From Octopus sinensis (Eukaryota): a stretch of DNA of 64,000 nucleotides. Each line of letters begins with the position of its first letter. The stretch's first letter is position 1. The notes below the pieces were generated by a model. The model ran no database searches. It worked only from the letters and a program-made list of their open reading frames with translations, and had not been told where the DNA came from. A program made the position numbers and the translations under genes. Location of the stretch: NCBI RefSeq assembly GCF_006345805.1, contig NC_043001.1, positions 83,142,001-83,206,000 on the forward strand, read 5' to 3'. This document shows positions 262-50,316 of the stretch, piece after piece.

Positions 262-1159
262 TCAAATAAAACTATGCATCAACACATTTTCGCTCGAGTA
301 CAATGTTGCATTTCTGCGATGCCTTTGTACGTACGTGTCTATGTCTGAAGATGTGTGTGCGTGTTTGTGTGGTGTGCTAGTGTGTTTATGCATCTCTGCG
401 TAAGTACTTTGTGTTTGCCATACCTCTCTTGCACATATATAAAACTATATTTGCACATCTAAACATTTTATTGAATCAGCAGACATTGTTGGACAACACA
501 TCACATCGCAACCTTGCCCCACCCCCGTCACACATAACCCCACGGTTAACAGTTTTCCTGTTGCACTAGAGCCGTACCGGAAATAAATATTGCGCGCAAA
601 GAATGCCGGTTGACTCACGTTCTTCGAGAAATAGTGAGATATCCTTTCCGGAAATTAAAAGCTACATACAGAATCCGGCGGTGCAAAAACTGATACGTCA
701 TAGGTAAAAATTGAAAAAAAAAAAAAAATGGAATAAAATAAAATAAAATGAAAATATAAAATGAATAAATGATTAAATAACTAGATAAATAAGTAAGTAG
801 ATAAATAAAGGACCCATACACAATATATCCGAAGTAATTTCGAGTTAAGGTTGCCAATGAAATAGAATTGTGTGGAGCCAGGAATTACTTTGATGTGCTG
901 TTTTGTGAACAAATTAAGTTTATAGGGAAACAAGTTTCAACACCAGGATGTGTCACGCATGCGCACACACACGCATATGTTTATGTGCGTGCGCGTGATA
1001 AGCTTCATTAAAAACTTAACCACCTCCCACTTTTATCTATGTATTACATATTTTGTGTTAGAAAATTTTTACGCCGTTTGTTTGGAACAATTCAACGTTT
1101 CCAGATGTTCTTAACCTTATCTTAATCTTCAGGATATAAAATAGATTTGGTTTAGACAT

Positions 1160-1215
1160 GCTCACATACGCACACACACATACACACACATACATACATT
1201 ACATATGCATATATA

Positions 1216-1267
<52 letters not shown>

Positions 1268-1374
1268 ATATGTAGATGCATATATATATAGATATATGTA
1301 TGTATATATATATATGAATACATATATACGCATATATATACATATATGTATAAAAATATATTCATATATATATG

Positions 1375-1423
<49 letters not shown>

Positions 1424-1460
1424 TATATATATACATACGCACACACACACACACACACAT
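1160..1460. repeat. (CA)n/(TA)n compound microsatellite
   Basis: Direct reading. Confidence 0.95.
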
Positions 1461-1840
1461 ATGGGAAACAAGTTTTCCTTAAGACATATTTTAAAAATAC
1501 GGCTATTTTAAAGCTTTATATTTTTTTATGGGCGATTTTCATATGTTCAATCTCTGGCAGTTTGTCAAGGACAGGAACATTTCTAGAATCATCATCGAAG
1601 TTTCTAGGTCTTCATATTCTCACATTCAGGGTTAAGAGTTGTTTGTGTGTGTTGCTACCATTTTATTGCAAGCAACGCTATTCTGGTTTGTTTAAACATT
1701 GTGGACGACATTTGAATTTATAATTTTAGATTTGTCCTCAATATGGTATCATTTCTTCTATAATTAACTGTTGTCATTAAAGTCTGTATTTTAGAATATG
1801 TGTTGTCATCAGAGTGTATATTTTTTTTCTTTTAACGTTA

Positions 1841-2244
1841 TACTCTTTTACTTGTTTCAGTCATTTGACTGCGGCCATGCTGTGGCACAGCCTTTAGTCG
1901 AGAAAATCGACCCCAGGACTTATTCTTTGTAAGCCTAGTACTTATTCTATCGGTCTCTTTTTCCGAACCGCTAAGTTACGGGGACATAAACACGCCAGCA
2001 TCGGTTGTCAAGCGATGTTGGGAGAACAAACACAGACACACAAACATATACTCACTCATACACACATATATACATATATACGACAGGCGTCTTTCAGTTT
2101 CCGTCTCCCAGATCTACTCACAAGGCTTTAGTCGGCCCGAAACTATAGTAGAAGACACATGCCCAAGGTGCCACGCAGTGGGAATGAATCCGGAACCATG
2201 TGGTTGGTAAGCAAGCTACTTGCCACACAGCCACTCCTGCGCCT
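1841..2244 (-). mobile_element. SINE family A, full length (tRNA-like head, CORE-like segment, internal TA/TG tract, AGTAAAAG tail)
   Basis: Reverse complement begins AGGCGCAGGAGTGGCTGTGTGGCAAG (A-box-like), has a B-box-like segment and TTGGGCATGTGTCTTC; matches more than 10 other copies in the window. Confidence 0.9.
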
Positions 2245-2264
2245 ATACTATGAGTATTGTTTCT

Positions 2265-2431
2265 TTTTATTGTGTCAGGGGAGAGTTGTTCTCTTTTAGT
2301 GCCTTAATTTACCGCACTCGCTGGTCTGATTTCCACTCAATTATCTATCTATGGTGGAAATCAGAAGACCGGTGACTGTGTTAAATCAATAAGGCACTAA
2401 AAGAGAATGATTCTCCCCTGACGCAATAAAA
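2265..2431. repeat. ~165-bp imperfect palindrome (fold-back)
   Basis: TTTTATTGTGTCAGGGGAGAG..TTCTCTTTTAGTGCCTTA..CTGATTTCCAC pairs with GTGGAAATCAG..TAAGGCACTAAAAGAGAA..TCTCCCCTGACGCAATAAAA. Confidence 0.9.
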
Positions 2432-3189
2432 TATGCTTCAACACAAGAATTCACATAAAGAATCTTGCAAGCCAAATGCAAAAACAAAATACTGTTTTTT
2501 TTATGTACTCGTATAAACTTTTAGAAATGATAACAGTAGATTACAGATATGTTGTCCACAAATACTTTTCCATATAGCTTTGCTGTATGTGATATAGCGC
2601 ATTTCAATTTCTCCTGTTGTGAGTATTTAGCTTGTATGATAAATACATCAGTTGAAGTCGTGAAGTTTACAACTTCCACATTTACATTCGAAACTATAAC
2701 ATGTACTATTAGCTTGCCTGCGGACGTACAAGCTGTGGTTTGTTATTGAGAAAATGGTTCTTAATGCTAGTGTTTTTGTACTAGTACTTTTATCATTACT
2801 TCAAGTTTGTTAGAGATAATGCTGTTTTATATACACTATAATCATTATGGATTTAATTTGCGGTGTTTATGTATTTCTCATACGTGTGTTCTCTCATATA
2901 CTTTTTGCTTTATATCGTGTATGCATTACAAACACACACATACACACAAACACACATAAGATTCGAGTTCACTATTTTCGGCACTGAGTCACTCCATCAT
3001 TAAATGTCTCGTTGTTATTCTTAAATTATCTGTAAACTAATGACCTTATTTCACATACGTGTGCACTCTCATATAATACACATACGCACGCTCTTAGAAA
3101 CAGCTACACACGCATACACACACATGATGTTGGTGTTTTTAAAGAAAATTGTAAACAGCTAGCAATATTAATTGAAAACAATATACGAT

Positions 3190-3203
3190 GTGTTTATGTG
3201 CGT

Positions 3204-3259
<56 letters not shown>

Positions 3260-3780
3260 GTGACTTAAAACAGGAAAACAGTCTAAGAAAGAAATACAGA
3301 GTTGCTGTGACTTCGAAGTTTCGACGAAACCGACTTGGCATGCGCACATACATACACACACATACACACACACACACACACATACACACACACATACACA
3401 CAGACACACGCAGACACACACACACGCAGACACACACACACTCGCAGAAAGACACACTCACACTCGCAGACAGACACACACGCAGACGCACACACACAAA
3501 CATTATATATATATATATGTATGCATATGTATATATCTATATCTATATATATATATATAATGTATATATACATACATATACATATATATATTCATATACA
3601 CACGCACTCATGCATACACACTCATATATATTTTTGCATACGTTGACTTTTGCCGATTAAAAATAACACACACACACACATATGTACATGTTTGTATGTA
3701 TGTATGTATGCATATATACGTATATATGTGAGTGTGACTTTCTTGTACACATATGCATACATACATGTACATATGTGTTG
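3190..3780. repeat. (TG)n/(CA)n/(TA)n microsatellite cluster
   Basis: Direct reading. Confidence 0.9.
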
Positions 3781-4019
3781 CAAGAGTGGAAGGGGAGTGT
3801 AGTCTACATTTACATTAACGCTCCCCGCCGTTCCTCTCGTACACCGCTCCACCAACCTTTTTTCAATAATGAATTCCATCTCTCCAGGATTCCAAGACCA
3901 TTAGATATATTATTGTAAACGTCTTCATATTCTCCATGTCAGCAGGATGTAGGCAATAAAGCTTTTTTCCTTTATTTTTAATAAGACCCATTAATTACTG
4001 CGGACCTCATACTTAGATG

Positions 4020-4464
4020 TAGTGGCGGCAAGGATGGTTCAGGCGGTGGTGGTGGTGGCTGTAGTGGAAGTGTTGAAAGTGGTGGTGTGACGGTGATGAT
4101 AGTATGACGTTGATGGTGGTAGTGGTAGTGGTAGTCATGGTGGTGCTGTTAGTAGTAGTGATGGTGGTGATGGTCGCGGAGTAGATGTTTGTACAATTAT
4201 TGTTGCTGGTAATGATGTAAGTGCTGGTGGCGGTGTAACCGTTGATGGTGGTGGTGTTAGTGGTGGTGATGTTGATTCTGAGGCTGGTGGTAGCAATAGT
4301 GATGATAGTAGTGATGGTAGAAGTGCTCATGATAGATGGTAGCGGTGGCGGTGGCGGTAGTAATGGTGGTGGTAGTTGTGACGGTGCTGTTAGCCGGGTG
4401 ATGTTGGTGTTGGTGGTGATAGAGTTAGTGGTGGTGTGGCGTTGGTAATACGGGAATGTTGCTA

Positions 4465-4539
<75 letters not shown>

Positions 4540-4586
4540 GTTGTTGTTGTTCTTTTTGCTATTATTATATTATCATTATTATTATA

Positions 4587-4633
<47 letters not shown>

Positions 4634-4655
4634 TATTATTACTATTATTATTATA

Positions 4656-4692
<37 letters not shown>

Positions 4693-4709
4693 ATATTATT
4701 ATTATTATA

Positions 4710-4795
<86 letters not shown>

Positions 4796-5191
4796 ATAGT
4801 AGTAGTAGTAGTAGTAGTAGATCTAGTTCTTAACCGCAGGTCAACTGTATTCAGAAAAACGGACGACATATAACTAAAGGCAGCCCAGTCGTGGCCATCT
4901 CATTATTTTTTGTATGCACGTAGAGCCCAAGGCTACATTATGCAATATGTCCATTCGTAGAAACAGTTTTGAGAATGAATTAGCTGTTATTTCTCGCAGG
5001 TCAAGCAATTACACCGATACCCCTATTTGTAGACTCGAAGTTCCGGTTGTGTTGGTGATGGCGATGGCGATGATGATGATTATGACGATAATGATGATGA
5101 TGATGATGACGACGACGACGACGATGATGATGATGATGATGATAGTACTGGGTTTGGTGGTGGTGGTGGTGGTGGTTGGTGGTGGTGGTGG

Positions 5192-19351: not shown

Positions 19352-20925
19352 GGAAGCACCAGGCGGTAAGGGGGACAACAGTCTCCTTAGTATAATTTTT
19401 TTTAAATGGTCATATTTCTTTATTGAGGTGTGGTCTGTACTTTTGTATGAACAGGTTTTCCTTGTTTAGGTGTTCTTGTACGGAGATTGAATCTTTGCAT
19501 TGGTATAATGGGAAGATATGAAAATTCGGCGTTTTATTACTTGCGCATTTGTTGATATGTCCTCTCAGTGCTCTCTGCCTGTATTGAGGGAAACGAATCT
19601 GTTCTTTATGCAGCGTGATACTGCGTCTCAAAGTAAGGCTCGTTTGGCCCACATAACTATGACCACAACCTGTGCAGGTTAGGACATAGAGAAGGTTCTG
19701 GGAAGCACATGTGAAGTTGGTCTTAATTGAGAATTTTTGTCTTGCTGGAATGTGAATTCCGAGCGTCCAGTTAGGTATTGGCATGTACCACAATTAGGTC
19801 GTCTGCATTTTTTAACTGTTGGTATCGTTTGTATTGAGTATAGTTCTGTATTTGTTAGGAGTCTCTTGAGTAATTTGTCCTGTCTTTTGCATTTTAGTAC
19901 TTTGTGTGTATTTAGGATGCTGTTCATTTTCGGGTCTTGAGTGAGCCGAGGGGGATTTTGTTTAATTGTGTTGTATGCTTCAATGTTTCTGGGGTTGTGG
20001 GTTGATATGTATGGGAGTGATTTAAGGTGTGGTGTGGTTTCTTTTTGTTGTCCTTAGTGTGTTTGTGTCCAATTTTTGGCACGTTTAATTTCATGTTCTG
20101 TACGTGTAGGGGGTATTGACGTTCAATGAGTGTTATTTTGAGTTCTTGTATGCGAAGTTCCCAAGTGATTGTGTCAGATACAATTGTACAGATCCTTTTT
20201 GCTAGATTGAATGGGATATTTGGTGTGTTTAGGATGGCATGAACTGAAAAGGAGATACTGTTTTGAGTCTGTTGGTTTGTAGTAAATGTCAGTTGCAATT
20301 TGGTTGTTGGACTTTTTTAAAATCAAAATGTCCAGAAATGGGAGCAGTTCCTTGCTATATCCCATCGTAAATTGGATGTTGGGGTTTATATTATTCAGTG
20401 TGGATTTGAAATCCAGGAGTTTATCATATGTTTCATTCCAGATGATAAAACAATCGTCTAGGTACCTTTTTCTTTTTCTGTCAGGCCTTTTCCATGTTTG
20501 AGTATTAATGATGCAAGATCTTTTAAGATCTTCACAAAAGGAGTCATTTTCTAGTATGGACAATGCTAGGTTTTTATAGTATTCTGTGTCAATCCCTACT
20601 ACAGCACTACATTTGTCTGCTTCTTTGATTGTCAGGTCTTTGTCGTTTTTTAGCTGTGATAGGTGCTTCCATTGTATGTTGTTGAAGTTAGGTACAATTT
20701 TTGGTTTATAGATAGTGTGAGGAAAATTCTGGATACTGTTGCAGAAGTCATCTAGTGCTTTATTCTTTCCTTTGGGTGGTAGATAATTACTTTTCTTTCT
20801 CACTAGTGATTCGCCATCGTTGTTTTAGTTGGTTAGTGATTCTGTCAATCGAAGTATTCTATAGAATTCTACAATATTGTCTTTAATTTCATTGGCGTTG
20901 GGTCTACGTGTAGTGGGTGTAAATT
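19352..20925 (-). mobile_element. Penelope-like retroelement (RT + GIY-YIG endonuclease), decayed and internally deleted; Neptune-like
   Basis: IKEADK, RYLDDCFIIW, LPFLDILI, IYYKPT (ORF 20174-20803); Cys linker KCRRPNCGTC; NLLYVLTCTGCGHSYVGQT..H..KENLFIQKYRPHLN (ORF 19410-19793); flanked by (TA)n. Confidence 0.93.
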
Positions 20926-21665: not shown

Positions 21666-22094
21666 TGTCATCTGAGGTCAGTGTATCAGTGTAGTTTGTT
21701 TCTGTTTTGTATTTTGTCGCCTCCTTGTGTATAGAGAAATGCCTTTTCTTTTTCTCGTGTTGCTTTACTACATGCAGTAGGTAGTCTTCCACTCTTTGAT
21801 TCTAAGTACTTCTATAGTCCAACCGTTGTTATTTTACAGTAATTCTCTATCAATATCAGGCCACGGCCACCTTCTGAGCAGGGTAGATATATTCTGTCTA
21901 CGTATGCGTTGGGATGGTATACGCTGTTTAGTAGTTTTTTTGGTTTTTCTATCTAGGTTTCTCAATTCACTGATCTCCCAGTTTATTATGTTAAAGCTGT
22001 AATTTATGACTGGCATGGCTAGCGTGTTTTTCCCTGTTATCTTATTTTTAGCATTAAGTTCAGTGTTTAATATTAGTCTAACTCTTCTGTAATA

Positions 22095-22401
22095 GAGTGG
22101 TTGTATACTGTCAACATAATGTGACAGTCCGTATGGATTACACCACCGCTGTTTAGCCCAAGGAAGCATCGACGCTTCCTGTCGGCTTTGACACATTTCC
22201 TGTGTCCTTATATTTGTGAAGGGGAGGCAAGCACCCCCACCAGCCAAGATTCACAGCTGAGGACATGCATGTTTCTGGGTCTTAACCCGTCATCAGCCCA
22301 GGATACTGAGATTTGCTGACTGAGGTGTCCGTCTAGCCTTCACAAACATATATATCTACAGTGAAATCTATTCACTGGTCACCGTAATTAGAAATATTAA
22401 A
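22095..22401 (-). mobile_element. ~307-bp structured non-coding insertion carrying a hammerhead ribozyme
   Basis: Splits the LINE frame MKEKISRAYY/RRVRL; TAATA is repeated at both junctions (22090-22094, 22402-22406); multiple hairpins. Confidence 0.8.
22257..22301 (-). ncRNA. Minimal type I hammerhead ribozyme motif
   Basis: CUGGG-CUGAUGA-C-GGGU-UAAG-ACCC-A-GAAA-CAUGCAUG-UC-CUCAG; all core nucleotides present; predicted cut after GUC (22262/22261). Confidence 0.9.
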
Positions 22402-24299
22402 TAATAAGCTCTACTAATTTTCTCTTTCATTCCTGTATGTTGTATTTTAGCTGTTTCTTCTTTTTCTAGATATTTGTATGGGCGGTTATGGTCTGATTCT
22501 GTGTCTATATCGAGTGCAGTGTTTGCAGTGCTGAATAATTTGCCTCTTGTCAGTGAGACTGGCACAATTGTCCAGCCCCATGCTCATTCAGATGTCATTG
22601 CTGATACTCAACAATTTTGATAAAGTTTTTCTGTTCTATGGTACAAGAGATGGTTATTTTTGTCCGTAGCACCTACAACCCATGGTGGTTTCGTTTAGCA
22701 AGGTTGTTAGCGGGTCAGAGAAAGGCAGAAAAGAAGGGTTGACAGTAAGTCTCCCTGGAAAATCTCTCTTCTTATGGGGTATAGGATAGGTTTTAATAAC
22801 TTGTAGGTCATTTTTTAATACTATACTGGTTTCCGGTTTGCCATTGCATACTTAATATATTTTAGTAGTGGTGGAGGCTACCTTTATTGTGTAGAGAGAT
22901 TCCAGCATCCATGAATGTGGAACACTGTCGAATGCTTTCTGGTAATCAATCAAGTCATGTTCAGGTTTGTCTTTCTCCTCTTACAGGCCTCCATAATTGC
23001 TCGGTTTACCAGAAGTTGCTCTTTATAGCCACATTTCCCTTTCCAGCACCCTTTTTGTTCTTCTGGTATGACACTGCTATTTTCCAGGTGCTTTATAAGC
23101 CGGTTATTGATGGCTGATGTTAGAGTTTTGTAGGATGTCAATAGGCATGTAACTGGTCCGTAATTTTGTGGTAGTACGGTGTCTTTGTTTTTGGGAATCA
23201 GGGCGATCTGCCCTTCCAGCATCCACTTTGGTGTTGGTTCTTATCAACAAATTGAACATGGTTATGGGTACTAGTGAGGTGTTTAACCTGAAGTTGGGGA
23301 CCTTGTCTATCCCTGGAGTTTTCCAGTTGCTGGTACTCCTCAGTGTGTCCATGATCTCTTGACCTGTGATAGTGGGCCATATCTGTTGTTCTATTGCGTT
23401 CTTCTCTTTTTCCCTTCTATACCACTCAGCATTTTTGTTGTGCTTCTTTGATCTTCTCCTTATTGCTTCCCAGTATGACTGAATCACTGACGTAGGCATG
23501 GCATCTACCGATGTAGTTTTTTAAAAACTTTCTATAAAAACATTGTGTTTTTTTTAATTCTCTATTTTGTTGAAAGAAGCGTTCCCGTTTTTCATACCGT
23601 TTCATGCAGCAAGTTTTTACTGCTATGCCCTGTTAAATTTTTTCTTTTACATCACAAGTATCTTCTTTATTTTTATGTTGTATTGTTTTGTTACATGGGC
23701 CCTTTTTTACTTTTCATATTTGATCCCTTTTTCTCTAATTCACAAAGTAGCGAAAAGTCTTTCTTTTGTTTTTGAATTTTATTTATGATCTGTTTTCATT
23801 TTGTGGTTTGAGATTTGGCTGGGATTTTTTCCTTGTAAAGATCAAGTCTAGTTTCCCTGGATATCACTACAGCTGTTGAGTAGATCAAGTCATTTAGTTT
23901 GCTGCTATCTAGTGTATCTTTTGATATGGTCATTATTACTTGTAAGGCTCTGTTGTATATATCCTTTCTTAGAACTGTTTATTTTTTTGTAGCCTGCGGA
24001 GACGTTTACGCTGCTCCATATTTATCGACTGTGTGATGTCTAGTTCTTTTACTTCTGTTATTTCTTCACTAGGTTCGTCTCTGTCCTCGGTTATAACTCA
24101 TCTGCTTTGGTATGTGTTATTTTTGTTGTTGTTTTGCGCTTTAGTATTCGCTTGTGTATGTTGTTGATATGCTGTGCTAATCTATTTATTTCAGGGTTGG
24201 GTAGCTATACAGAGATTTTACTTTGGTTTAGCCGTTTATTTACTGTTTGCAGTGATATCTCTGTTGTGTTCTCTTCTTTCCTTTCTGGAGTTTTATGCG

Positions 24300-35727: not shown

Positions 35728-37310
35728 CCAGCATCATCATCATCACCAGCATCATCATCATTGTCCAATGTTTGATTCCCATGCCGGTATGGGTTGGAAA
35801 ATCTGGATGCAAGAATGTCTCTATGTATATACATACATACACACATGCATATATCTTATGGTTCCAGAATTTTGCTATGAAGTGTTGTTCCATATTTTTT
35901 CTGAAGAAGGCGTCTGTAGTTTTCTACCCAGTGTTTTATCGCCTCCAGACCCAGGGTGTGTGGTATGTACGTGTATAAGTTTGTCACATCGAAGCTTGCA
36001 AGTATGGTGTTTTCTGGAACCGTACTTGGAATGTGTGTGAGAAAGTCTGTCATCCCTTATGTAGCTTGGTATCAGTGGGCATAAAGGTTTGAGGAGTACA
36101 TCTATGAAGTGGCTTAGTTGTGTTGGTGCTTGGGGTCCTGCCACTATTGGTCTCATTGTGAGGTATGTGGGCCTTTGTATTCTTATATAATGGCTGCTCT
36201 ATTCTTTTATGGCTCTCTGTATTTCAGAGCTTTTATGAATTTTAGGCAGTCTACAAAAATTGCTTTCTTTGGTTCTTGAGTTGCATAGATAGGCTTTCTC
36301 CTTGTCTGTAAAAGAATCCTGGTATTCATTGACTAATGTTCCGAAATTTTTAATGTTGCTTTCTCCGGTTGTGTTGATTCCTCTTTATAGTATGTCTGGT
36401 TGTTAAGAATATCTAGTATATTTTCTTTCTAGTAATCTGTATCCATAATCACTATTGCTCCACGTTTGTCAGCTTCTTTTAAGACGTTCGACTTGTCATT
36501 TTTTAAAGTTTTTGTAAAGCTTGTTTTTCTCCTCTGTGGAGGTTCTCTTTGCATTTATGTGTGTTGAGAGGGAATTTGGAGATTGTCTCTATGTATGTGT
36601 CTAGGTGTCTGTCAAATCTCCTTGTAAGGGGTGAATTGGGATTTTTGTCTTATGATTGAGTGATCTTCTGTTCCCTTATTTTCAAAGAATTCCATAAAGC
36701 AGAGGCGGCGGCTTAAGTTATATATATCAGTTTTTAGTTCTATGAGATTTTGAGTGGGTGTGGATGTAAATTTGAGGCCTTTTAGTAGTAGGTTCAGCTC
36801 ATTTTCGCTAAGTTCTCATTTAGATAGGTTTATTATTTTGGAGTCTGTGTGTTCATTCGGAATTTTTGGTATGTTGGATCTGGAGTATGGTTGCAGTATC
36901 CTTTCCCTAAAAAGTGGTTGTGTTGTTGCGTCTCCAACTTCCATTTTCAGGTTTTTAAAAATATTCTTTCTTTATCTCCTGTTCAAAACACTTCCTTTCA
37001 GATACACAGGCACACACACACACACACACACAGACACACACACACACACACCACACACACACATACCCACACACACACACGCACGCACACACACACACAC
37101 TCACACTCAAACACACACATTCATTCTCACTTTCTCCGTCCACTATCTCTCCATTTCTCTCCCTCTTTTCCTACCCTTTACACTCCACATTACCCTTCTT
37201 TTCCCCCTCTCTCTCTCCACCCCAACCCATTCACTAATACTATAAAAAGAGACAAATCCTTTCACACAATTGAAATCTGAAGAATCTATTAGAGTAAATT
37301 AGAATATTTG
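35050..37310 (-). mobile_element. Penelope-like element remnant (N-terminus and RT start) bounded by ~300-bp inverted pseudo-LTRs
   Basis: LLLKGLKFTSTP, KEADK, RPIVAGPQAPT, YIRD..DFL, LASFDVTNLYTYIPHTLGLEAI (35856-36850); 35060-35355 is the reverse complement of 36960-37297. Confidence 0.88.
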
Positions 37311-37892: not shown

Positions 37893-37946
37893 AACCACCT
37901 GAAGAATGTCTCATAGAAGTGCTGACACGAAACGATTGTAGTGGTT
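37893..37946 (+). ncRNA. Minimal type I hammerhead ribozyme motif
   Basis: AACCAC-CUGAAGA-A-UGUC-13nt-GACA-C-GAAA-CGAUUG-UA-GUGGUU. Confidence 0.82.
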
Positions 37947-38602: not shown

Positions 38603-39020
38603 GATATATATATATATAATATATATTTATATTGTTTGTTTGTACTCTACCTGCCTTCGTCTTTGTTAATTTCGTAAGCTTCCCGTTATATATATATATA
38701 TATATATATACACATACACACACATATATGTGTGTGCCTGCATTGTGTATGTGTGTGCCTGCATTGTGTATGTGTGTGCCTGCATTGTGTATGTGTGTGT
38801 CTGCATTGTGTATGTGTGTGTGTGTGTGTTTCCCAGCACCTTTTGACAATCGATGCTCATGTGTTTACATTCACGTAACTTAGCGGTTCGGCAAAAGAGA
38901 ATAAGTACCAGGCTTTAAAACAATTAAGCATTATTGTCAATTCATTCGATTGAAATTCATGAGAGATGTGCCCCAGCATGGCCGCAATCTAATGCCTGAA
39001 AACAACAAACGGTAAAAGTG
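38099..39020. mobile_element. SINE A fragments in mixed orientation, microsatellites and a 21-bp x4 minisatellite
   Basis: 5' half + (38099-38250), 3' part - (38352-38460), 3' part + (38830-39020); TGTGTGTGCCTGCATTGTGTA x4 at 38729-38812. Confidence 0.8.
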
Positions 39021-39104
39021 ATATTTCATACAGGGAGTATTTTGGCCTTTATCTAGAAAGAATTATGCTTTCTGGAAAAGAAAGCAACAGAGAATTTAGA
39101 AAAT

Positions 39105-39592: not shown

Positions 39593-39809
39593 GAAGTTCA
39601 ATTGCACGTTAATAGATCGCATGGTCATACGTTCGAATCTTATAGTTATTGAATCATAAAGTTGCTTTTCGAAAGTACATATTGTATATAGAGGGAGGAG
39701 CATCGCACCGATAACTAACTGGTGGATAATCTGCCTGGGGTTAAAATAATAGTAACGTGGAACAGCCACTTTGACGTGGCAAATTATTTTATTTGTTAGT
39801 ATAGTTACT

Positions 39810-40024
39810 ACTCTCTTTTCTCTTTTACTTGTTTCAGTCATTTGATGCTGGAGCACCGCCTTTATTCGAGCAAATCGACCCCAGGACTTATTTTTGGAAG
39901 CCTAGTACTTATTCTATCGGTCTCTTTTGCCGAACCGCTATGTTACGGTGACGTAAACACACCAGCATCGGTTGTCAAGCGATGTTGGGGGGGGGGGGGA
40001 AACACCACACACACACACACAAAC

Positions 40025-40072
<48 letters not shown>

Positions 40073-40248
40073 CATACATATATACATATATACGACGGGC
40101 TTCTTTCAGTTTCCGTCTACCAAATCCACTCACAAGGCTTTGGTCGACCCGAGGCTATAGTAGAAGACACTTGCCTAAGGTATCACGCAGTGGGAATGAA
40201 CCCAGAACCATGTGGTTGGTAAGCAAGCTACTTGCCATACAGCCACTC
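39810..40248 (-). mobile_element. SINE family A
   Basis: Consensus match. Confidence 0.9.
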
Positions 40249-40371
40249 TCATTTCTTGAGATTCTACGACTAGTTATTTTGCTTGTTGCGAATCAGTGGC
40301 AAATGGTCCCTTTGTTTACATTACATTGATGGCGGGAGCGAACCCGGGCTATCGCTCTGGCGGCCAGGTAC

Positions 40372-40420
40372 TCATGACTGAAGATGAGCCAAGCAGCTCG
40401 AAACTGAGTCAGTTTTGCGA
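40372..40420 (+). ncRNA. Hammerhead-like motif at the tip of a long hairpin (40331-40459)
   Basis: UCAUGA-CUGAAGA-U-GAGC-CAAGCA-GCUC-GAAA-CUGAGUCAG-UU-UUGCGA; stem I is imperfect. Confidence 0.68.
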
Positions 40421-41021
40421 TCCTGTGTCCGCTAGAGGATGGTAGAGGTTCGCTTCGCCTGCTAGCAATATATATTGTATATAGAGGGTGCAGCTTCGCA
40501 CCGATAACTGGATAATCTGCCTGGGGTTAAAATAGTAGTAACACGGAACAGCCAGTTTGACGTGACAAATTAGTGTACTTGTTAATATAGTTACTATTTT
40601 GATCTTTTCTTGAGATCTTTTCTTGAGATTTTCTTGAGATGTGCTCTATGTTCGGTTGATAAACATCGTATTAAAAAGGAAGCATATGCGTAATTGTTTC
40701 CCTTAGCGAAATTAAAATCATATTCGATATATACTAATATTGCTGTTGTTTTGTTTTCCTGAGAGCGTAGAAGTCTACAGATCGCATGGTCCTACGTTCG
40801 ATTCTTATAGTTATTGACTCATAAATTTGTCCTTTGTAAAGTACGATGTAGTCTATGTTCAACTGATAACATCATATTAAGAAGGAAACGTGTAATTGTC
40901 TCCCTTTATGAAATAATTAAAATCATATTCGACATAACCTAGCATTGCTGTTGTTTTCTTTTCCAGAGACCATAACTTTTACTAGATAAATGCTGAAAAT
41001 ACTCCTTGTATTAAATATCTT

Positions 41022-41297
41022 TTATCTTTTACTTGTTTCAGTCATTAGACTGCGGCCATGCTGGGGCATCGCCTTCAACAATGTTTAGTCAAATGAATCG
41101 ACCTGAATACTTACTTTCTGTTAAGCTTGGTAATAATTCTATCGGTCTCTTTTGTCGAACCGGTAGTTTACAAGGACGTAAACACACCGACATCGACTGT
41201 CCAGTGGTGGTGAAGGATAAATATAGACACAAAGGCAAACACACGCGCGTGCACACGCACACGCACACATGTAGACAGATAGATAGATAGATCGATC

Positions 41298-49636: not shown

Positions 49637-50316
49637 AAAGCAGAGACAGAAGGATTTTTAATTGCAGCACAAGACCAAAGCCTCCCCACCAGAAATTACC
49701 AAAAAGCATGTAATGAAATGAAATATAACAAGTAACTGCAGAATATGTGGAGATGGACAAGAAACAATAAATCATATTATCTCTGGCTGCCCAGTCCTGG
49801 CTAAGAAGGAATATATTCACAGACATGACAGAGTTGGAACCTATATACACTGGAAGCTATGCCAACATTATGAAATAATAACAGAAAAAAGATGGTATAG
49901 GCACACACCAGAAAAGGTCACAGAAAACGAGAAAGCAACCATACTCTGGGATATGCCGATACACACAGATAGAGAAATCAAGGCCAACAGACCAGATATA
50001 GTTGTCAGAGATCATGAAGAAAAAAATGCTTTCTAATTAATGTATCAATACCAGCAGATGACAACGTGTCTCTAAAAGAAATGGAGAAACTTTCAAAATA
50101 CAAAGAACTGGAAATAGAGGTAACCAGAATGTGGAATCTAAAAACAGAAACAATTCCTATCATAATAGGTGCATTAGGCGTGATAAAAAAATATTCAGAC
50201 AAATACATAACAAAAACACCAAAACTTACAAACACATATAACATACAGAAAATTGCACTACTAGGCACTGCACACATCCTACGCACAATGATTTCCATAC
50301 AGTAACTATCAGAGCA
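49637..50316 (+). mobile_element. 5'-truncated R4/Dong LINE: CCHC knuckle and restriction-like endonuclease, inserted in (TAA)n
   Basis: AETEGFLIAAQDQSL..CRICGDGQETINHIISGC..HRHD..WD..ANRPDIVV..KLSKYKEL..IPIIIGALG..GTAHILR; one stop and one frameshift. Confidence 0.93.

Follow-up and report, generated by a model that had tools for sequence, protein, structure and literature searches.

A hammerhead-bearing rod in Octopus sinensis DNA: the middle of a repeated head-to-tail unit, likely a non-LTR retrozyme

A GC-rich island in the DNA of Octopus sinensis (contig NC_043001.1) folds into a long rod that is capped by a hammerhead-like motif, which raises the question of what kind of element carries it. 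The window, meaning the whole stretch of 64,000 nucleotides that was analysed, is repeat-rich eukaryotic DNA, with many duplications and inversions around the rod. The rod, with its hammerhead, forms the middle of a non-coding unit of about 350 bp that occurs in many copies and is repeated head to tail. The unit is likely a non-LTR retrozyme, and the window holds a decayed copy of about 1.5 units. Published work is cited from the portions of each source that were available.

The helices that a sequence-only reading of this DNA had named were all found in place on the plus strand. The 129-nt rod folds at −66.2 kcal/mol (z −6.0), a stability reached by none of 200 shuffles, and the reverse strand at −52.7 kcal/mol (z −4.2). 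Among 128 sampled 129-mers of the window (GC at least 0.48, step 65, the exact frame of the rod lying outside the sample), none fell below −50.3 kcal/mol on either strand. The supposed strand bias of G-U pairs had the expected direction but was weak, with 7 G-U against 2 A-C among 45 reference pairs (one-sided p 0.09), and it was rejected as proof of selection at the RNA level. In four of the seven G-U pairs the alternative letter recorded in the family gives a Watson-Crick pair. The parts of the rod and its motif are as follows.

40331..40459, plus strand: rod, a long imperfect extension of helix I (folding, family variant letters)
40365..40425, plus strand: extended type I hammerhead (descriptor, alignment to Rfam RF02275, family letters)
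40365-40368 with 40422-40425, plus strand: distal helix
40369-40371, plus strand: UAC bulge
40372-40377 with 40415-40420, plus strand: helix I, 6 bp
40378-40384, plus strand: core CUGAAGA
40385, plus strand: extra U between A9 and G10.1
40386-40389 with 40396-40399, plus strand: helix II, 4 bp, loop CAAGCA
40400-40403, plus strand: GAAA
40403..40413, plus strand: near-palindromic helix III (folding energies)
after 40414, plus strand: predicted cut, at GUU here and GUC in 82-90% of the family depth

The core proposed earlier, running from CUGAAGA through the extra U, GAGC, CAAGCA and GCUC to GAAA, was located at 40378-40403 on the plus strand, with the near-palindromic helix III at 40403-40413. 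All elements of a type I hammerhead (CUGANGA, GAAA, NUH and three helices, with helix I open) are present at 40365-40425. Against Rfam family RF02275 (Hammerhead_HH9), 77 of 77 model positions aligned at 40359-40439, with 14.4 bits (E 0.42), a score well below the gathering cut-off of 52 bits. At gathering level the window gave no Rfam match, RF02275 and RF00163 (Hammerhead_1) included. The RF02275 alignment matches UAC (40369-40371) to the helix I loop UUAC and CAAGCA to CAAAAA in loop II, so that the internal loop of helix I and the letters of loop II are placed for tertiary contact as in extended type I motifs. Judged from these letters, the UAC bulge and loop II are the parts for a tertiary contact, and the contact itself is predicted. 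The identity of the motif as a hammerhead is thus upheld by the full-length HH9 alignment on the plus strand, but the hammerhead is not the minimal one first described: with its 6-bp helix I, internal UAC bulge and six-base loop II it is an extended type I motif.

Comparable designs have been reported. The tertiary contacts of natural type I motifs are carried by the helix I loop and loop II, looped extensions of helix I are needed for cleavage of the monomer in newt hammerheads (PMC6155905, PMC3088659), and folds with an extended stem I have also been proposed for cricket satellite hammerheads (PMC2837043). An extra base between A9 and G10.1 is a trait of Penelope hammerheads and of some canonical ones (PMC4209133).

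Helix I of this copy is damaged, with one mismatch and two G-U pairs, and the letters of the family majority repair it. With those letters 40372-40377 and 40415-40420 read the same CpG-rich, six-base palindrome, and most damage in this copy resembles CpG decay.

The type I descriptor found three motifs in the window, at +40378, −22296 and +37899, against a mean of 0.51 in local shuffles, of which 3 of 200 reached three. Since so loose a descriptor lies little above chance, the case rests on the family, the unit and the Rfam alignment.

The extent of the element was determined from self-comparison and from contigs of other sequencing runs. The copy in the window is made up of these segments.

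39679..40637, plus strand: whole copy, about 1.5 units and about 520 bp without the SINE (self-comparison, junctions)
39679..39815, plus strand: upstream terminal repeat A', the 3' part of the preceding unit (alignment to A)
39816..40248, minus strand: SINE-like high-copy repeat between A' and X, a later insertion outside the element (boundaries, copies in the window)
40250..40330, plus strand: segment X, 5' of the rod and part of the unit (family contigs in four of four runs, joints returning to 40253)
40469..40603, plus strand: segment A, with an AT-rich tract, a short hairpin plus TGGGGTTAAA (40522-40531) and a terminal hairpin
40601..40637, plus strand: start of the next unit, repeated about three times as an 11-13-base stutter (tandem repeats 40601-40640 and 40605-40640)

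The window stretch, or part of it, occurred in 20 of the 24 runs listed, mostly as small shares; no RNA run was among those listed with it, which carries no information on expression. Contigs of four runs with four species labels (X1, X4, X5 and X13, of which X1 may be the window's own source) were mapped on 40250-41000 at 80% likeness, which gave 378, 363, 256 and 445 family contigs, respectively. Summed contig depth, which is not read as copy number, was 450-5,000 over the hammerhead and at most 180 past 40614 in the four runs. Between 40250 and about 40610 the coverage is deep, and beyond that only one or a few contigs remain; the family therefore reaches well past the rod on both sides. 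Among the 15 joints listed of 43, a single contig in each of X1 and X4 runs back from 40554 to 40253, and a single one in X13 from 40560 to the same position, giving family units of about 325-340 bp. Among the 24 loose ends listed of 562, those before 40253, from 14 contigs of X1 and 7 of X5, have the sequence of the segment A end. In the window the period is 354 bp, the start of X at 40255 recurring at 40609.

The 354-bp unit is non-coding, with a GC content of 0.446, no ORF longer than 78 aa and one type I hammerhead, which places it within the size and composition of non-LTR retrozymes (non-coding, about 150-450 bp, GC below 50%, one type I hammerhead). Like these it is a many-copy, head-to-tail repeat, with 256-445 contigs in each of four runs and joints in three. 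Folded as a circle, the whole unit is 72% paired (z −6.7, 40 shuffles), and past its first bulge the rod likely belongs to this self-paired fold of the unit RNA.

Of 14 variant places listed in the rod, seven improve a pair and one turns A-U into G-U; four are unpaired (N7, loop II, the cleavage-site base and a bulge) and two break outermost pairs. The outermost GGCG/CGCC pairs are lost in the family majority (40334, 40457). All three listed places in helix I change from a mismatch or G-U to a Watson-Crick pair, by majority letters at 59-88% of depth, so that stem I is repaired in the family, a point that the sequence-only reading had proposed to check. The invariant core positions carried no variant among the 40 rows listed of 184, with variation at N7 and at one place in loop II; the homologues thus keep both core and pairing. 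No two-sided compensatory change occurred among the variant rows listed, and the family repairs are reversions of the decay of this copy, not covariation. Two hammerheads in tandem were not seen among the 32 contig pieces listed of 1,541, which are short contigs, and the window locus has one. A 2026 preprint (10.64898/2026.07.22.740005) calls retrozymes 'active' when at least two consecutive units each hold a complete hammerhead. Pattern scans for copies of the unit in metagenome contigs and viral contigs gave no match.

These results bear on two other explanations of the rod. One is a DNA inverted repeat or MITE-like hairpin whose loop resembles a hammerhead by chance: both strands fold well, the G-U bias is not significant and loose descriptors give about 0.5 chance matches per window. 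It is extremely improbable and already largely refuted, as the inverted repeat is internal rather than terminal, majority letters of the family bring back helix I and the GUC site, and the full-length Rfam alignment is on the plus strand only. Nor is the rod a lone inverted repeat at the DNA level, since it sits inside a larger family unit. The other explanation is a stand-alone class of rods of about 130 nt, whose long stem I would stabilise a minimal hammerhead. A second rod in the window (22213-22346) has about 45 pairs like the first, a similar length and no significant shared sequence, and the family letters tighten the rod at 40331-40459. Family coverage from 40250 to about 40610 exceeds this rod, however, the second one also lies within a longer insertion, the motif bears the tertiary-contact features of extended hammerheads, and looped helix I extensions are already known (PMC6155905), all of which make the stand-alone class very unlikely. 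Of the shared class proposed earlier, the structural likeness of the two rods therefore stands, while their status as free-standing elements of about 130 nt does not: the rod at 40331-40459 takes up the central third of an approximately 350-bp unit.

The copy in the window reads in the order A', SINE-like repeat, X, rod, A and stuttered start of X. A' and 40473-40596 are identical at 111 of 123 aligned letters (90%), with one 7-base indel, and the stutter matches 40250-40262. Because the start of X recurs at 40609 and a second A lies upstream, the copy spans 39679-40637, about 1.5 units. The interrupting repeat, which we take to be a tRNA-derived SINE on the minus strand, has ACTCTC on both sides and many copies in the window. 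Its insertion point (39815/40248) lies within a few bases of the unit junction, at the position where the second element described below begins and ends. At 11 family-variant places in A and A', a minority letter is shared in five, the upstream repeat has the family letter in four and a third letter occurs in two; going by these letters, the agreement would suit copying from one template over more than a single circuit. The copy has a lone hammerhead, a GUU cleavage site and damage in helix I, and is probably inactive.

The insertion lies in a low-copy tandem of about 205 bp (B, C, B', C'; 40638-40974 and 39614-39678), and these flanking repeats are unrelated to the unit. An element-free paralogous junction occurs at 40844/40845, and the flanks of the copy join up likewise. 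Both junctions of the insertion are present in X4, and the insertion is therefore present there too. No target-site duplication was seen flanking this copy; in non-LTR retrozymes such duplications, where they occur, exceed 4 bp. The flanking host repeats C and C' are alike at 57 of 64 places, on par with the terminal repeats, so that this copy may instead reflect a DNA-level duplication. For C/C' the comparison did not uphold the idea of an insertion clearly younger than its host tandem. The stretch 40948-41098 recurs in inverted orientation at 38940-39090.

The second rod belongs to an element of the same layout on the other strand.

22095..22401, minus strand: second element, a 307-bp monomer (junctions, folding, descriptor)
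22213-22346, minus strand: second rod, inside the 307-bp insertion

Its hammerhead on the minus strand has the core from 22296, a UAU bulge, a six-base loop II, a GUC site and a fully palindromic helix III; no Rfam hammerhead match was obtained in this rod up to E 10. The element is flanked by TATTA (5 bases) on both sides, and an open frame reads up to its left junction and resumes at the right one. This frame is presumably RT-like; Pfam put no name to the fragment searched. The two rods are of the same structural kind, and the earlier statement that they share no primary similarity agrees with their global alignment (z 1.2, with 67 of 500 shuffles equally high). The two whole units, shared core included, align with z 2.8 (1 of 500 shuffles); their 3' parts give z 3.8 against the upstream repeat and z 0.8 against the downstream one, and local alignments between the two elements were not significant. 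Any sequence homology between them would therefore be weak and mixed.

At 53-63 bases past the rod, both elements have a short hairpin, then UGGG(G/C)(U)UAAA, then a terminal hairpin; the counterpart of TGGGGTTAAA in the second element lies at 22151-22161 on the minus strand. The window shows no enrichment of the pattern TGGGN{1,2}TAAA (7 against 5.2 expected), and only the position of the pattern is therefore notable. The isolated 3' hairpins of the first copy were no more stable than shuffles (z −1.5 and −0.6), whereas that of the second element was (z −3.2). Summed depth at 40532 was 3.1-12.9 times that at 40414 in the four runs, a hint that more sequences share the 3' motif than the hammerhead. 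The stretch 40510-40561, which holds the short hairpin and TGGGGTTAAA, is the deepest-covered part of the family in all four runs.

A satellite-type hammerhead repeat, spreading by recombination or duplication of DNA with no RNA intermediate, would suit the many local duplications and inversions, the lack of a target-site duplication and the equal likeness of C/C' and A/A'. It is highly improbable all the same, as the second element is a clean dispersed insertion in a coding frame with 5-base repeats, the first copy ends in a short 3' stutter, and core and helices are kept in the family.

Among known systems, the non-LTR retrozyme reading compares the unit first with the metazoan non-LTR retrozymes, for example the 350-390-bp units of Mytilus and the 330/350-bp units of axolotl (Cervera and de la Pena 2020, PMC7229834). 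It shares with them a length within 150-450 bp, GC below 50%, the head-to-tail arrangement, many copies, one type I hammerhead, a self-paired predicted circle and Penelope-like remnants in the same genome. Differences are the loop 1/loop 2 letters, present at 40365-40425 unlike in the Mytilus motifs, the continuation of helix I for about 45 pairs, and a helix III that is predicted to block the core, whereas in most animal circles that paper predicts the hammerhead to be left free, some mussel circles excepted; the octopus unit is, moreover, known from DNA alone. With RF02275 (clan CL00010; Schistosoma Sm-alpha and newt satellite types, PMC6155905) the motif has in common the 6-bp helix I, UAC on the 5' side, a 4-bp helix II, a six-base CAA-type loop and the intact core. 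It differs in having an additional U between A9 and G10.1, a bulge with a single base on the 3' side and a longer, near-palindromic helix III, and at 14.4 bits it is not itself a member of that family. Plant LTR retrozymes are marked by type III hammerheads in their LTRs, a primer-binding site, a polypurine tract and a 4-bp duplication; the hammerhead found here is of type I.

The window also holds other retroelement remains. Broken Penelope-like RT fragments lie at 19410-20824 and 35875-36198, both on the minus strand, the former followed by a GIY-YIG fragment (PF01541, E 2.8e-4), and a relaxed pattern found no hammerhead beside the Penelope-like remnants of the window. Another non-LTR retroelement has left remnants at 21834-23520 (minus strand), interrupted by the 307-bp hammerhead element, and at 49722-50305 (plus strand), with a zf-RVT match (E 3.5e-4) at 49722-50033. 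Pfam named two of six protein fragments, both below the curated cut-offs, and a PDB search and a pairwise comparison gave no match. A third type I hammerhead lies at 37893-37946 on the plus strand (Rfam Hammerhead_1, 19.0 bits, E 0.015), in AT-rich DNA directly after a TA microsatellite and just before an N gap. It has a long helix II and a GUA site, with neither rod nor UAC bulge, and looks like the Penelope pseudo-LTR type.

The unit around the rod could instead be the pseudo-LTR of an autonomous Penelope-like element, the copy being a 5'-truncated partial tandem in which just the non-coding end is left, and the hammerhead a trimmer of Penelope transcripts. The extra base between A9 and G10.1, with G10.1-C11.1, and a palindromic helix III suited to cleavage of dimers are traits of such pseudo-LTR hammerheads (Cervera and de la Pena 2014, PMC4209133; Li, Clavereau and Pollet 2026), as are partial tandems with direct terminal repeats, and Penelope-like remnants occur in the window (GIY-YIG, E 2.8e-4; RT-like clusters, 0.87 in the Atlas, a lead only). 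The hammerheads of metazoan Penelope-like elements, however, have a long helix II, a short helix I and a poorly defined loop 1 in the available part of PMC4209133, whereas the motif at 40365-40425 is not minimal and has a 4-bp helix II, a 6-bp helix I and a defined bulge. Among the 24 loose ends listed of 562, those upstream of the unit return to unit sequence and to no other, no RT or GIY-YIG ORF adjoins it at the window locus and no ORF lies inside it, and the unit has no DNA match to the Penelope-like remnants of the window. This reading is accordingly considered unlikely. The 2026 preprint derives retrozymes from pseudo-LTRs (10.64898/2026.07.22.740005); the retrozyme and pseudo-LTR readings therefore grade into one another and differ mostly in label.

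For the preferred retrozyme reading, the steps of cleavage, circle formation and mobilisation are drawn by analogy from published elements. Metazoan non-LTR retrozymes consist of non-coding units of 150-450 bp in tandem, each with a single type I hammerhead (PMC7229834, PMC7761336). Their RNAs are cleaved into monomers, which a host ligase closes and Penelope-like elements probably mobilise (PMC7229834, PMC7761336, 10.64898/2026.07.22.740005). In the octopus, read-through transcription of tandem units would yield a multimeric RNA, in which each extended type I hammerhead would cut after GUC, aided by contacts between the stem I bulge and loop II. Cutting would probably proceed best as a double hammerhead, with the palindromic helices III of two units paired. 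A host ligase would close the monomer into a circle, and the RT of an autonomous element, most likely Penelope-like, may then copy the circle, or a multimer left uncut, through more than a single round. Copying beyond one round would leave ends far from the cut site and duplicated terminal segments. In both genomic copies the two ends do lie far from the cut site, which is what a circular or uncut multimeric template would be expected to give. Several points count against the retrozyme reading: 8 of 9 predicted retrozyme dimers did not cleave in the preprint (10.64898/2026.07.22.740005), the tandem joints amount to one contig per run, no contig piece among those listed holds two hammerheads, the Rfam score is far below the cut-off, the copy shows no flanking target-site duplication, and the extra base and palindromic helix III are shared with Penelope pseudo-LTR hammerheads.

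The predicted folding of helix III adds a further feature. Its 5' arm duplicates the five letters at 40377-40381, among these the catalytic CUGA, and its 3' arm can therefore pair with the catalytic CUGA. In the predicted fold the five inner pairs between the 3' arm and CUGA, which block the core, have probabilities of 0.94-0.99, and helices I and III of this copy have a pair probability of 0.0. The hammerhead fold is thus not the predicted ground state here: it lies 9.6 kcal/mol above the free fold, a cost that falls to 3.6 kcal/mol with four family-majority letters (nearest-neighbour estimates, in which tertiary contacts are not counted). As a hairpin helix III amounts to −0.5 kcal/mol and as a duplex of two copies to −13.2 kcal/mol, which is about the cost of opening two locked units (2 × 7.0), so that cleavage of dimers would be favoured. 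Helix III is accordingly predicted by this model to block the CUGA core in the monomer and to pair between units in the dimer.

A bolder combination, offered tentatively and rather doubtful as it stands, is a retrozyme lineage with two built-in signals, the helix III lock and a 3' docking module for the mobilising RT. By the first signal the monomer or circle would shut its own core, and only tandem units, joined helix III to helix III, would cut. The second would be the 3' module of short hairpin, UGGG(G/C)(U)UAAAC and terminal hairpin, which sits at a matching place in two otherwise unrelated families and has far deeper coverage than the hammerhead.

For cephalopods, the record in the available literature is a count, 235 Hammerhead_1 matches in the giant squid assembly (PMC6962438), and the cephalopod elements in the available text of the Naiad paper are without hammerheads. 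No published description of these retrozyme families, or of any cephalopod retrozyme, was found in the open-access literature, repeat databases aside. If the retrozyme reading is right, two hammerhead retrozyme families are added to a lineage with only hammerhead counts so far, an element kind that is already known and thus expected rather than surprising to a specialist. Both copies, one of 1.5 units and the other a 307-bp monomer, have ends far from where the RNA would be cut and would then be clean genomic traces of the copying of a circle or multimer. If the combined reading is true, lock and docking module would bear on how the circles of animal retrozymes escape self-cutting and on which autonomous element moves them; both features lend themselves to inexpensive tests.
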